This document shows positions 12,990-46,666 of a DNA stretch of 64,000 nucleotides, piece by piece. The stretch spans positions 3,249 to 67,248 of the forward strand of contig DASXEN010000068.1 in assembly GCA_036490095.1 (NCBI GenBank), written 5' to 3'. Both the position numbers and the translations under genes were made by a program. The notes below the pieces were generated by a model. It was not told where the DNA came from and ran no database searches. It was given only the letters and a program-made list of their open reading frames with translations. Source of the DNA: Caulobacteraceae bacterium (GTDB lineage: Bacteria > Pseudomonadota > Alphaproteobacteria > Caulobacterales > Caulobacteraceae). How positions within the stretch are numbered: the stretch's first letter is position 1; every line of letters begins with the position of its first letter.

Positions 12990-14129
12990 TCAGGCTGCGG
13001 CAACCGGCGCTGGGTGGCGCATCTGGTGCAGCCGGTGCAGGCCGAAGAACAGCCCCGCGCCCACCACCAGAAGCGCGATGCCGATCAAGGGCCTGAACGC
13101 GATCCAGGCGAGCGCCACGACCACCAGGGTGATGGGCACGGAAATCACCACCGCCGCGAACATCGCCGCGCCCCGGGCGATCGAGCCGAGGAACGGGATC
13201 ACCGCCGCGAAGGTCGAGATCGGACCGAGGAACATCGAGAAGCCGGACACCATGGCCACGAAGCCGATGACCCGCAGCAGCCAGGTCATCGTCGACTCGC
13301 TGCCCCGCTTGGCCGCGAGCATCAGCGGGGCGGGCTGGTTGCCGTCCTTTACCATCTCGATCTGGTAGCCGTTCTTGGTCTGGAACGGCGCGAAGCCGCC
13401 GTGACTCTGGTCGGCCAGCACCGACAGCGTCGATCCGCTCGCCAGGCCGAGGTAGCTCACCTTCAGGTCGCCCGCCTTCGGCGCGTCCGGGTCGCCCTTG
13501 TAGAGCGCGCCGCCGACGGCCTGCCAGTGCTTCGGCGCGTCCGCCTGCAGTGGGCTGGTCACGTCCGCGAGCTTCAGGACGTCGGGATCGAGCGTGTACC
13601 CGCCGAGCTTGGCGTCGCTGGCGCTCCAGCGGGTGCTGGTCACCGCCATGTCCGGATTCTGGTGCCCGTCCGGATGCTTGAATTTCGACGAGTCCGGCGG
13701 GCTGGCGAGCCAGGCCTGGTCGTAGGTGTAGGTCGTGGTCGTGGTGCGGCCGCCGCCCAGGTTGTCGTGCGTGGTCTGGCGTTGTTTCTCCTCCCAGGCG
13801 TACATCTGCGCCGTTCGCCCCACGGCCACCTGGTCCTTGAACTTCACCCCGACGTCCGGATCTTCGATCGGCGTGGCCGCGGTCGCCGGTCCCACCACGT
13901 GCACCAGCTTGCCCTCGTTGGCGGGCGAGACCGCGTTGGCGCTCGCCTCGACCAGCGACTTCGAGGCGTCGCCGAGCCCGCTCAGCGCCTGCACGGCGCG
14001 GCCCTCGTTCCAGGCCAGCAGCCAGATGGCGCCGATGATCAGCAGCGGCCCCAGCAACAGCCCCGCCAGCGAGCTGCCCAGGCGCGAAAAGAAGCCTTGG
14101 GTCGTAACTTCGGTATATTGATCTGACAT
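12990..14129 (-). CDS. TMEM43 (DUF1625) family membrane protein
   Basis: Start taken at MSDQYTEVTTQGFFSRL. There is one N-terminal TM and several C-terminal TMs. WNEGRAV is a motif typical of the family. Confidence 0.7.
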   Translation of the reverse strand: MSDQYTEVTTQGFFSRLGSSLAGLLLGPLLIIGAIWLLAWNEGRAVQALSGLGDASKSLVEASANAVSPANEGKLVHVVGPATAATPIEDPDVGVKFKDQVAVGRTAQMYAWEEKQRQTTHDNLGGGRTTTTTYTYDQAWLASPPDSSKFKHPDGHQNPDMAVTSTRWSASDAKLGGYTLDPDVLKLADVTSPLQADAPKHWQAVGGALYKGDPDAPKAGDLKVSYLGLASGSTLSVLADQSHGGFAPFQTKNGYQIEMVKDGNQPAPLMLAAKRGSESTMTWLLRVIGFVAMVSGFSMFLGPISTFAAVIPFLGSIARGAAMFAAVVISVPITLVVVALAWIAFRPLIGIALLVVGAGLFFGLHRLHQMRHPAPVAAA

Positions 14130-14230: not shown

Positions 14231-14482
14231 ATTGAACCACGGAAAACACGGAGGGCACGGACGGGGAACCATACTCCGAACCCGACCTCCACGCTCCCAT
14301 GTCGTCCCGGAGAGCCCCGCCGTCAGGCGGGACTCATCCGGGATCTGCTTCCACGGCGGCGAGGAGATCCCGGACGACTCCTCCCGGATCAAGTCCGGGA
14401 GGGTCTCCGGGATGACATGGGAGGGAGTGTGAAGGGGCGGGTGGCCGCGTCCGTGCTTTCGGTGTTTTCCGTGGCCCAAAAT
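14231..14482. repeat. Gene-less inverted-repeat-bounded structured element (CACGGA-repeat termini)
   Basis: Left arm ATTGAACCACGGAAAACACGGAGGGCACGGACGGGG (14231-14266). The reverse complement of 14445-14482 matches it at 26 of 30 positions in the core. An inner 20-bp stem (14295-14314 / 14404-14423, 19 of 20) encloses three hairpins. Confidence 0.8.
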
Positions 14483-14495
14483 CCCCGGTGCGCCC

Positions 14496-16400
14496 CTAGC
14501 TCTTGCGGAAAAAGTCGAAAACCCGCTGGGCCAGCGCCTCACTCACCCCCTCCACCTTGGCGAGGTCGTCCACCGACGCCCGCGACACGCCGCGCGCCGA
14601 GCCGAAAGCGTGCAGCAAAGCCCGCTTCTTCGCCGCGCCGACGCCGTCGATCTCGTCGAGCGGGTTGCGGCGCATCTCCATCGAGCGGCGGGTGCGGTGG
14701 GTGCCGATTGCGAAGCGGTGGGCCTCGTCGCGCAGGCGCTGCAGGTAGTAGAGCACCGGGCTCTTCGGCTCGAGCATGAAGGGCGGCTTGCCAGGCAGGA
14801 AGAAGCGCTCCAGGCCGGCGTCACGGTCGGGGCCCTTGGCGACGCCGACCACGGCGATGTCGTCGACCCCGAGGTCGGCCATCACCTCCAGCGCCGCCGC
14901 CAGCTGGCCGGCCCCGCCATCGACCAGCACCAGGTCGGGCCTGGGCGGGCTCTCGCCGGCCTCCTCCTCCTTGGCGAGGCGGGCGAAACGCCGGCGCAGC
15001 ACCTCGTTCATCATCCCGTAGTCGTCGCCGGGGGTCAGCTCGGTGCTCTTGATGTTGAACTTGCGGTACTGGTTCTTCTGGAAGCCCTCCGGCCCGGCCA
15101 CGATCATCCCGCCGACCGCGTTCGTGCCCATGATGTGGCTGTTGTCGTAGACCTCGATGCGCTCGGGCGTGGTCTCCAGGGCGAAGGTCTCGCAGACGGC
15201 GGCCAGCAGCTTCGACTGGGCCGAGCTTTCGGCCATCTTGCGGCCCAGCGCCTCGCGGGCGTTGGTCAGCGCGTGGTCGACCAGCTCGCGCTTCTCGCCG
15301 CGCTGCGGGCGGGCGATCTCGATCTTGCGGCCGGCCTTCAGCGCGAACGCCTCACTGATCAGCTCGCACTCCTCGGGCGCGACGCTGACCAGGATCAGGC
15401 GCGGGATCGGCTTGTCCTCGTAGAACTGACCGAGGAAGGCGGCCATCACCTCCGGGTCGTCGTTGCTCTTGTCGACGCGCGGGAAGTAGGCGCGGTTGCC
15501 CCAGTTCTGGCCGGCGCGGAAGAAGAACACCTGCACGCAGGCCTGGCCGCCCTCGGCGTGCAGGGCGAAGACGTCGGCCTCGTCGATGGTCTCGGGATTG
15601 ACCTGGGTCTCCTGCGCCACCGACGACAGCGCCCGGATGCGGTCGCGAAGCCGAGCGGCGCGCTCGAACTCCAGGTCGTCGGCGGCGGCCTGCATGTCGC
15701 CGGCCATGCGCGCCATCACCGTCCGGCTCTTGCCGCGCAGGAAGGCCTCGGCCTCGTCGACCAGCTTGGCGTAGTCCTCCAGCGAGATCAGCCCGGTGCA
15801 GGGCGCCGAGCAGCGGCGGATCTGGTGCAGCATGCAGGGCCGCGTGCGGCTCTCGTAGACGCTGTCGGAACAGGAGCGCAGCAGGAAGGCCTTCTGCAGC
15901 GTGTTCAGCGTCCGGTTCACCGCCCAGGCGCTGGCGAACGGGCCGAAGTAATCGCCCTTGATGGCGTGGGCGCCGCGGTGCTTCTTCAGCTGCGCCGCCG
16001 GGTGCTCGCGGCGGATGACGATCTCGGGGAAGCTCTTGTCGTCCCTCAGCAGCACGTTGAAGCGCGGCTTCAGCTGCTTGATCAGGTTGATCTCTAAGAG
16101 CAGCGCGTCGGTCTCGGTGCGGACGGTGGTGAACTCCATCGACCGGGTGAGGTCGACCATCAGGGCGATGCGCTGGGTGTGGAAGCGGCCCTGGGCGTAC
16201 TGGATGACGCGCTTCTTCAGCGAGCGCGCCTTGCCGACGTAGAGCGCCTCGCGGTCCTCGCCGAACATGCGGTAGACGCCCGGCGCGTCGGGCAGGCGCC
16301 TCACCTCGTCCTTGATCAGGGCCGCGCCGACCAAGGCGGCGGGGGCGGAAACGTCGTCGGCCATGACCGCCAATATAGGCGAGTCCGCCGCGCCGCTCAC
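14496..16400 (-). CDS. uvrC: Excinuclease ABC subunit C
   Basis: 634 aa with GIY-YIG N-terminus (GVYRMF...LYVGKA), UVR domain and C-terminal HhH. An alternative start is MADDVS at 16364. Confidence 0.95.
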
Positions 16401-43452: not shown

Positions 43453-43498
43453 ATTGAACCACGGAGGACACGGAGAAGGCACGGAGGGCACGGAGTGG
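43453..43498. repeat. Left arm of the 46-bp inverted repeat flanking the GxxExxY gene
   Basis: ATTGAACCACGGAGGACACGGAGAAGGCACGGAGGGCACGGAGTGG, built from four tandem CACGGAG-containing units of 9-11 nt. Confidence 0.9.
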
Positions 43499-43872
43499 AG
43501 GACGACCAGTTAGGGGAGCTGATTCTCCGTTGCGCGCTGACCGTTCACAAGGCCCTTGGCCCGGGACTGCTTGAGAACGTCTACGAAGCCTGCCTGGCGC
43601 ACGAATTGTCGAAGTCGCAAATTCATTTTGACCGGCAGCTGGCGCTGCCGGTCGCCTACGACGGTATCACGATCGAAGCGGGCTATCGGATCGACCTTCT
43701 GATCGCGAAGCGGGTGGTGGTCGAAGTGAAGGCGGTGGAGCGTCTGGCGGAAGTGCACCGGGCGCAGCTTCTGAGCTACCTGAAACTCGGCGGCTATCGC
43801 TTGGGCTACCTGCTCAACTTCAATGTCGCGCTGATGAAAAACGGCATCGTCCGCATGCTGAACGGCTACTAG
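43495..43872 (+). CDS. GxxExxY family protein (PD-(D/E)XK nuclease-like fold)
   Basis: LGPGLLENVYEACLAHEL carries the G-x-x-E-x-x-Y signature. YRIDLLIAKRVVVEVKAV has the D...E-x-K pattern. The likely GTG start at 43495 gives about 125 aa. The longer ORF from 43414 translates the repeat arm. Confidence 0.85.
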   Translation: MEDDQLGELILRCALTVHKALGPGLLENVYEACLAHELSKSQIHFDRQLALPVAYDGITIEAGYRIDLLIAKRVVVEVKAVERLAEVHRAQLLSYLKLGGYRLGYLLNFNVALMKNGIVRMLNGY

Positions 43873-43914
43873 CGCGAAGCGCACGCACACGTGTCAGCGG
43901 ACTGTCGGTCGCCT

Positions 43915-43960
43915 CGACTCCGTGTCCTCCGTGCCTCCTCCGTGACCTCCGTGGTTAAAC
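43915..43960. repeat. Right arm of the 46-bp inverted repeat flanking the GxxExxY gene
   Basis: The reverse complement GTTTAACCACGGAGGTCACGGAGGAGGCACGGAGGACACGGAGTCG matches the left arm at 40 of 46 positions (counted by eye). Confidence 0.9.
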
Positions 43961-43982
43961 TTTTCGACCTCCGTCGCCCGCC

Positions 43983-44010
43983 CTTGTGTGGCCATGGCGC
44001 CACACTACAT
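43983..44010 (+). promoter_or_regulatory. Candidate sigma-32 (RpoH) heat-shock promoter for clpB
   Basis: CTTG-N18-CTACAT compared with the alphaproteobacterial sigma-32 consensus CTTG-N17/18-CYTATNT. It lies about 65 nt upstream of the clpB ATG. Confidence 0.3.
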
Positions 44011-44074
44011 CGGAGCGGCAGGGCCTGCGCTTGATCAAGGCGGGCCCGGCGCATCCGCCTATTAGAGGGGATTC

Positions 44075-46666
<2,592 letters not shown>

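Follow-up and report, generated by a model that had tools for sequence, protein, structure and literature searches.

The 64,000-nucleotide stretch analyzed here, which we refer to as the window, belongs to contig DASXEN010000068.1 of a Caulobacteraceae bacterium (GenBank assembly GCA_036490095.1), and at 14231–14482 it contains a 252-base element that occupies the intergenic spacer (366 nt) between uvrC and a TMEM43-family gene. The minus strand carries both genes. uvrC (14496–16400; TIGR00194, E 8e-164) is the upstream gene on this transcribed strand, with its stop codon 13 nt from the element, and the TMEM43-family gene (12990–14129; PF07787, E 9e-62) lies downstream, with its ATG 101 nt beyond the element. 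These matches bear out the location given in an initial annotation of the window, made from the sequence by itself. The TMEM43-family protein has a 100% identical match (P0001) in a Caulobacteraceae metagenome-assembled genome.

The element consists of a pair of outer arms around a palindromic inner repeat. The left outer arm (14231–14266) begins with a terminal (A)TTGAAC that is followed by three 9-nt units, CACGGAAAA, CACGGAGGG and CACGGACGG, and its 21-nt pattern is also present at no fewer than 119 genome loci. The right outer arm (14445–14482) is the inverted copy, with TCCGTG-type units and a terminus, GGCCCAAAAT, that is a degraded GGTTCAA. When aligned, the inverted arms at 14232–14266 and 14445–14479 extend over 35 nt and are 83% complementary; the 9-nt units are at 14238–14261 and their inverted counterparts at 14450–14473, with 2 mismatches each, and the TTGAAC cap plus CCACGGA is exact at the left end and degraded to GGCCCAA at the right end. 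A left spacer (14267–14293) and a right spacer (14424–14444) connect the arms to the inner repeat, or core (14294–14423), where a closing stem (14294–14316 against 14401–14423; 23 nt, 91% complementary) surrounds three hairpins: GAGCCCCGCC with GGCGGGACTC (14312–14335), TCCGGGATC-N20-GATCCCGGA (14337–14374) and CCTCCCGGA-TCAAG-TCCGGGAGG (14380–14402). The third hairpin is specific to the window copy, and homologues of the core have a short CCGC-TTCG-GCGG hairpin in its place. The inverted terminal copy, the inner stem (then drawn at 20 bp), the three hairpins within it and the six occurrences of TCCGGGA/TCCCGGA (counted by eye) had all been described in the initial annotation, and all of them were found again. 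Its view that the element is unlikely to be coding also holds, as Pfam has no match for the open reading frames (ORFs) that cross the element. In its small size, terminal inverted repeats and lack of coding capacity, the element looks like a MITE (miniature inverted-repeat transposable element). We found no promoter-like site and no canonical terminator-like site of the element's own. By-eye comparison showed no direct repeat, and thus no target-site duplication, flanking the window element, its composite homologues or other complete elements; where the flanks of the compared elements match, the match is an extension of the inverted repeat.

The same terminus occurs a second time in the window. 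The sequence ATTGAACCACGGA is found at 14231–14243 and again at 43453–43465, so that the 13 nt of identity previously claimed for the two left ends is correct and becomes 14 nt when the preceding T is counted. In addition, TTGAACCACGGA, with up to 1 mismatch allowed, has 3 matches in the 64-kb window compared with 0.09 expected, and all 3 are ends of the uvrC-adjacent element or of this second copy. The second copy is a gene-bearing cassette on the plus strand (43453–43960). Its left arm (43453–43494) ends exactly at the GTG start codon of a GxxExxY gene (43495–43872; TIGR04256, E 1e-41; PF13366), and its right arm lies at approximately 43917–43960. With this cassette, the window genome has a GxxExxY gene whose arms are of the same type as those of the uvrC-adjacent element.

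To place the shared terminus in a wider setting, we scanned 596 Gb of a genome collection on both strands with the pattern TTGAACCACGGANNACACGGA, which has 19 specified bases. The scan returned at least 126 matches in 119 loci, whereas about 4 would be expected by chance by our arithmetic. The hosts of this nonamer-arm family come from at least 10 phyla and include Verrucomicrobiota, Planctomycetota, Bacteroidota, Chloroflexota, Acidobacteriota, Gemmatimonadota and Alpha-, Beta- and Gammaproteobacteria, so the range of Caulobacterales and Sphingomonadales that had been suggested for a search was too narrow. The filler bases differ by lineage: Betaproteobacteria have GGA or GAA, Planctomycetota and Verrucomicrobiota have TTA or TCA, and the other hosts have AAA or ATA.

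The counts that follow were made among the matches listed, where every terminus runs on as a tandem 9-nt array of ACACGGA plus two variable bases. Joining each left array to the next inverted array gave 94 elements, 87 of which are 49–267 bp long and 7 of which are 348–504 bp. No gene is present in 90 of the 94. Four of the seven long elements contain a GxxExxY (TIGR04256) ORF, namely the window cassette, two loci to which we gave the numbers L024 and L025, and a frameshifted copy in L036; the remaining three have non-coding cargo without a GxxExxY remnant. Because 87 of the 94 paired elements are short and only 4 carry the ORF, the gene-less form is the commonest one in the family, and the element beside uvrC is no oddity. 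Family elements lie inside a long open frame less often than same-size random segments do (43% versus 83%). In one Burkholderiales metagenome-assembled genome (MAG), two elements (L083 and L085) have related interiors and unrelated flanks, and are thus copies at different loci of one genome. The proposal in the initial annotation that the element is a MITE-like, non-autonomous relative of the GxxExxY cassette is therefore supported and can be extended: the arm family is large, gene-less copies are the rule, and the sole protein cargo seen is GxxExxY.

The association also holds when it is approached from the protein. Seven GxxExxY genes were chosen by protein similarity alone, and all seven are bracketed by inverted nonamer arms or by complete hairpins. 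The arm unit is CACGGAG in two Caulobacterales (L134 and L135), CGCRGAG in a soil metagenome (L136), CACAGAG or CGCAGAG in Bacteroides finegoldii (L144), CGCGAAG in Sphingomonas parapaucimobilis (L145; NZ_CP155749.1, 1480–1945) and CACAGAG in Bernardetia (L146). These variants all fit C-R-C-R-R-A and therefore differ by transitions only. On the 1.1-Mb plasmid 1 of Gemmatirosa kalamazoonensis KBS708, the GxxExxY gene (L149, 33594–34267) has a complete hairpin of approximately 85 bp on each side and is not within one hairpin; it is the one GxxExxY gene found on this plasmid, and at least 8 more complete hairpins are present in the 150 kb sampled. This gene is covered by two tblastn pieces and may be frameshifted. 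Four cassettes of the Alphaproteobacteria type have a left arm that stops precisely where the start codon begins (CACGGA|GTG) and that contains GGAGG, and arm pairing would therefore bury the ribosome-binding site. In the Sphingomonas copy, the annotated GxxExxY ORF continues into the right arm.

GxxExxY genes are co-directional with housekeeping neighbors, including radA, fabD–fabG, an adenine deaminase gene and, where they lie upstream of it, clpB. The gene orders are fabD–GxxExxY–fabG in Sphingomonas, radA–GxxExxY–FAD protein in Bacteroides and ade–GxxExxY–mannose-1-phosphate guanylyltransferase in Bernardetia. A cassette lies directly upstream of clpB in three Caulobacterales (window 43453–44076, L134 1463–2316 and L135 1460–2088), and the proteins of these cassettes are about 74% identical. 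Between the cassette and clpB there is a conserved CTTGTGTGGC...GCCACACTACATC block, which we take to resemble a heat-shock-type promoter. Directly after the intact cassette in L134, a 187-bp gene-less derivative (1980–2166) has retained the left arm as well as the GTG start, from which it passes into the right arm, and deletion is therefore one route from the gene-bearing to the gene-less form.

Several further searches were made with the protein and the element. GxxExxY gave no hits in searches of the Protein Data Bank by sequence and by profile. PADLOC reported a weak Cas4-like similarity for GxxExxY, which fits a PD-(D/E)XK fold, and no defense system. No GxxExxY relatives were found in a scan of viral contigs or by tblastn of phage genomes, and a BLAST search of plasmids with the 252-nt element gave no match.

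The core of the uvrC-adjacent element is a separate repeat. A homologue of the core in L108 is also located inside CACGGAAAA arms and does not have the third hairpin, and a metagenome scan with TGTCRTCCCRGAGA-N65-95-TCTCYGGGAYGACA identified seven more loci (L120–L126), of which L120, L121, L122, L125 and L126 have no nonamer arms and L123 and L124 have CACGAA-type arms. Because L122 and L126 represent one locus, found in two relatives, there are 8 independent core loci and 4 of them have arms: besides the window, the core stands alone at four independent loci (five contigs) and is enclosed by CACGGA or CACGAA arms at three. The nine core sequences have a mean identity of 77% and are 108–118 nt long between TGTC.TCCC.GAGA and TCTC.GGGA.GACA. 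They contain two conserved GANTC sites, the CcrM methylation motif, one at 14331–14335 (GACTC, in 8 of the 9 sequences) and the other at 14376–14380 (GACTC in the window, in 9 of 9), and the central base of the sites varies (GACTC or GAGTC). There are 76 GANTC sites in the 64-kb window, or 1.19 per kb compared with 2.6 per kb expected from base composition, and this depletion is consistent with a host that has CcrM.

By its size, host group, intergenic position and CcrM sites, the core probably belongs to an element type that is known already, the CcrM-associated intergenic repeats (CIRs) of Caulobacter reported by Chen & Shapiro 2003 and summarized in PMC2229807 and PMC10969869. The likeness concerns the core alone and was judged against the description given in those summaries: both are about 110 bp, intergenic, dispersed, multi-hairpin repeats of Caulobacter-type Alphaproteobacteria with conserved GANTC. 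In contrast to the arms found around the core at 4 of 8 independent loci here, CIRs are described in those summaries as having no terminal inverted repeats, and CACGGA arms are not mentioned in the text consulted. The left spacer of the window element is homologous to the spacers of the L108 and L124 composites and to the flank of the arm-less L121, as judged by alignment and by-eye comparison, so the composite of arms, spacer and core apparently had a single origin, followed by spread; its occurrence at unrelated loci of other genomes means that it spread as a unit. The arms of the composite later seem to have been altered on both sides, with CACGAA replacing CACGGA. The idea of a family of modular cassettes in the initial annotation was thus right in spirit, but the "different cargo" is a second repeat, CIR-like and with GANTC, that is nested in or fused to the first, and not a functional module.

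We then compared the uvrC–TMEM43 locus between genomes. Among relatives that share this gene order, the nearest (L127), in which the TMEM43 protein is 73% identical, has a spacer of 146 nt rather than 366 nt, with neither arms nor core, and its similarity to the window past the uvrC stop codon ends at about the start of the element. In more distant relatives, uvrC and TMEM43 are separated by other genes. This difference in presence and absence is consistent with insertion without proving it. The comparison of uvrC-proximal spacers proposed earlier thus yielded a relative whose spacer is free of the element, but no empty and filled pair among close strains. A Logan contig (L148, 1–132) from a second, independent assembly of short reads of this strain stops about 30 nt into the arm of the element, and such hairpins may therefore break short-read assemblies.

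Taking these results together, we consider it likely that the uvrC-adjacent element is a non-coding, non-autonomous copy of a two-layer dispersed repeat DNA, in which a nonamer-arm foldback surrounds a CIR-like core. The outer layer is a foldback of inverted arrays of the 9-nt unit ACACGGAnn with TTGAAC caps, which we regard as the hallmark of a cross-phylum family. Rare members of this family enclose a gene for the approximately 125-aa GxxExxY nuclease of the PD-(D/E)XK type, or have hairpins on either side of it, and most members are gene-less and 50–250 bp long. The inner layer is an alphaproteobacterial palindromic repeat of about 120 nt whose two conserved CcrM (GANTC) sites fit a CIR. 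At the level of DNA, the element would be selfish or neutral repeat DNA that is copied without obvious target-site duplication. Most plausibly, the resident GxxExxY nuclease would bring about this copying in trans through its action on hairpin or cruciform arms, in parallel to the hairpin-forming doublets of repetitive extragenic palindromic (REP) sequences called REPINs and their REP-associated tyrosine transposases (RAYTs). At the level of RNA, minus-strand read-through from uvrC would produce a nearly fully paired hairpin of about 250 nt, and by analogy with Correia elements this hairpin should be a substrate for RNase III and a stabilizer of 3′ ends that uncouples uvrC from the TMEM43 gene. 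What the data show directly is how the element is built, its place in the family, the prevalence of gene-less members, the tie to GxxExxY, the nesting and the lack of the element in the nearest relative, whereas the mobilizing enzyme and the processing of RNA are inferred.

Two other origins for the element itself have to be weighed against this reading. One is a functional structured RNA, either a small RNA (sRNA) or a part of the uvrC–TMEM43 transcript that serves cis-regulation or processing, with its RNA structure under selection; the initial annotation had likewise allowed for a structured RNA carried in "packaging" arms and had proposed folding both strands and looking for covariation. 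The predicted fold is indeed extremely stable, at −176.6 kcal/mol (z = −11.8) on the plus strand and −165.0 kcal/mol (z = −11.2) on the minus strand with 0 of 200 shuffles as good in either case, and since the element lies in a co-directional spacer, it is probably transcribed. However, either strand gives a single hairpin with nearly all bases paired, and such equal folding of the two strands is expected of a DNA palindrome. Related arms have been altered on both sides and are still complementary (CACGGA/TCCGTG versus CACGAA/TTCGTG), but none of the 40 predicted core pairs is compensatory in RNAalifold with 9 sequences, a shallow alignment of sequences that are too similar, and by our count the wobble and A–C mismatches in the window arms are balanced at 2 versus 2 on the two strands, with no strand signal. 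There is a weak full-length likeness to Caulobacter sRNA CC3552 (RF01529; 14313–14408, minus strand), the best sub-threshold Rfam match, at 22.3 bits compared with a gathering threshold of 50 (E 0.1), but at the gathering threshold no Rfam family matches the window or 18 loci from other phyla. Moreover, the genes beside the homologues are unrelated, the orthologous spacer in L127 does not contain the element, and the promoter-like or terminator-like sites that an RNA gene could have of its own are missing. Because both strands fold equally, the core shows no compensatory change and Rfam gives no match, we conclude that the element is a dispersed DNA repeat and not an RNA gene specific to this locus, and we regard the structured RNA as improbable. 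The other origin is an in situ wreck of a GxxExxY cassette, in which the gene was lost by internal deletion, so that the element did not arrive gene-less. The deletion derivative beside the intact cassette in L134 and the 14-nt terminal identity with the resident cassette are what such a history would leave, but there is no GxxExxY remnant inside the window element even at E 10, its interior is a CIR-like repeat, the same composite of arms, spacer and core is found at other loci of other genomes (L108, L123 and L124), and its arm units are of the AAA type that is shared by gene-less Caulobacteraceae copies (L074, L091 and L104), whereas cassettes have the GGA type. We think this history very improbable.

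The role of the nuclease is a separate matter from the nature of the element. GxxExxY is the prime candidate for a helper because the association is specific in both directions across phyla and because the layout is like that of REPINs and RAYTs. We therefore propose, tentatively, that the nonamer-arm hairpins and GxxExxY form a cross-phylum partnership of replicator and helper, similar to REPINs and RAYTs but with another class of enzyme, in which the nuclease would recognize the ACACGGAnn units in extruded hairpins, cruciforms or a double-stranded RNA stem and copy or excise them; the uvrC element would then be a composite passenger with a CcrM-site repeat. An alternative that we find less probable than this, and unlikely in itself, is that the primary repeat is the hairpins themselves, self-standing, REP-like and tolerated or used by the host, and that GxxExxY is not a mobilizing enzyme but a secondary invader that targets the loops or a domesticated partner, for example a toxin-like nuclease that is silenced by 5′–3′ pairing over the Shine-Dalgarno sequence and start codon. 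In favor of this alternative are the coincidence of arm end and start codon with GGAGG in the arm of four Alphaproteobacteria-type cassettes and the conserved position of the cassette upstream of clpB. A 125-aa nuclease is also small for a transposase, and the loops do take foreign inserts, as seen from the CIR-like core and from L006 and L104, with their extra or interleaved arms. However, random invasion of loops should bring other genes as well, whereas GxxExxY is the sole protein-coding cargo found among the matches listed and every GxxExxY gene sampled has arms; specificity in both directions across phyla is the prediction of a cognate pair of enzyme and substrate.

A number of points weigh against the repeat-and-helper interpretation that we prefer. 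The conserved place upstream of clpB indicates long vertical inheritance, and not recent mobility, of the resident cassette. PF13366 is listed as a family of unknown function (PMC3424549), and the AlphaFold model of GxxExxY has a mean pLDDT (predicted local distance difference test) of just 59.7; because of this value, its Foldseek matches are meaningless and were not used. The window arms are only 83% complementary, and this copy may therefore be old and inert. Among close strains we saw no transposition event and no empty and filled site pair, the closest comparisons being L127 and an assembly of the same strain, and in this only other same-strain assembly the element's arm is present too. 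The CIR identity of the core is putative and was judged from the published description of these repeats. Finally, the scan picked one exact terminus among at least 119 loci, and the proportions given above describe a sample and are no census.

Among known systems, that of REPINs and RAYTs is the closest analogue. In behavior the outer family is similar to REPINs and MITEs, but its arm architecture and associated protein differ from both. REPINs with RAYTs (PMC3116915, PMC3337134) are likewise short intergenic hairpin-forming inverted doublets with many non-autonomous copies, and they too have a single small gene flanked by the same repeats, as the Gemmatirosa gene is with its complete hairpin on each side, together with many gene-less copies; the place of the gene in the chromosome is often conserved, and no target-site duplication is evident. 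The differences are that the protein here is the approximately 125-aa PD-(D/E)XK GxxExxY (TIGR04256/PF13366) and not an HUH Y1 transposase, that the arms are tandem 9-nt units and not GTAG- or CGTC-tagged REPs, that the gene is inside a single large hairpin in many lineages, and that mobilization is suggested here by association. Correia elements of Neisseria (CREE, or NEMIS) are 100–160 bp long, and the hairpins formed by their terminal inverted repeats are bound or cleaved by RNase III, with altered expression of neighboring genes (PMC2649163, PMC10969869). They share the long terminal inverted repeats and the co-transcription with neighbors (PMC2649163, PMC10969869), but their sequence is unrelated, and they have TA duplications, an IHF site, outward promoters, a range of one genus and no known associated nuclease gene. 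Classical bacterial MITEs (PMC10969869) are also small, non-coding, multicopy and intergenic, with terminal inverted repeats and occasional nesting. Unlike these, the present family has no parent insertion sequence with a recognized transposase, the only gene with matching arms being GxxExxY (PF13366), and it combines internally repetitive arms and a range of many phyla with the lack of target-site duplications.

A small gene, or nothing at all, in the loop of a long 5′/3′ stem is an arrangement known from the ORF-bearing intervening sequences of 23S rRNA and from the fold-back of hok mRNA, where one expects either cleavage of the stem by RNase III or masking of a ribosome-binding site by it. 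The nonamer-arm elements differ from the 23S rRNA intervening sequences in that they are found in ordinary intergenic spacers and not in rRNA. Some other candidates were tried and rejected. An integron attC site does not fit, as the gene lies within the palindrome and not beside it and the termini resemble core sites only loosely. The arm motif CACGGAKG presumably resembles a CsrA/RsmE binding motif, but as a CsrA/RsmE sponge it would be buried in duplex and its host phyla are unsuited. There is no U-tract past the stem, as an intrinsic terminator would have, and a tRNA-like origin of GGTTCAA was considered and dropped. The sub-threshold CC3552 match of the window element was judged to be chance or at most shared repeat content; sRNA CC3552 itself might overlap a CIR-type repeat.

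Taken alone, the uvrC-adjacent copy is ordinary intergenic repeat DNA, and its main value is as a warning against annotating its ORFs or calling it an sRNA. The nonamer-arm family is the more interesting result, as its hairpins bracket GxxExxY genes from Bacteroides to Caulobacter to Gemmatirosa and are far commoner without a gene. We found no earlier account of the nonamer arms in the literature searched for GxxExxY, PF13366, TIGR04256 and the arm and core sequences, and with the coverage of that search incomplete, the family of nonamer-arm foldbacks with GxxExxY-bearing members is apparently, and for now provisionally, undescribed. If the nuclease does service the hairpins, PF13366, with its thousands of members, would gain a first function, and a second REPIN/RAYT-like system with a different chemistry would be open to study; cultured hosts include Bacteroides finegoldii, Sphingomonas parapaucimobilis, Gemmatirosa kalamazoonensis and Iodobacter arcticus. 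Because elements lie within housekeeping operons or beside their genes (fabD–fabG, radA, upstream of clpB, uvrC), any influence they have on mRNA processing could be relevant to how essential genes are expressed.

Some members of the family have a less regular build. In L104 (138–360), a CACGAAC-type left array follows a CACGGAAAA left arm and a GTGTTCGTGAGG motif lies past the CACGGA right arm, so that the two arm types appear interleaved and not cleanly nested. Left arms are tandem or duplicated, with fewer right arms to match, in L006 (6130–6600), L047 (304–380) and L043 (727–900). About 30% of the left termini among the matches listed have no right arm within 3.5 kb, and some directly precede an ORF; examples of the latter are L063 and L065, which are two contigs of one MAG with identical flanks.

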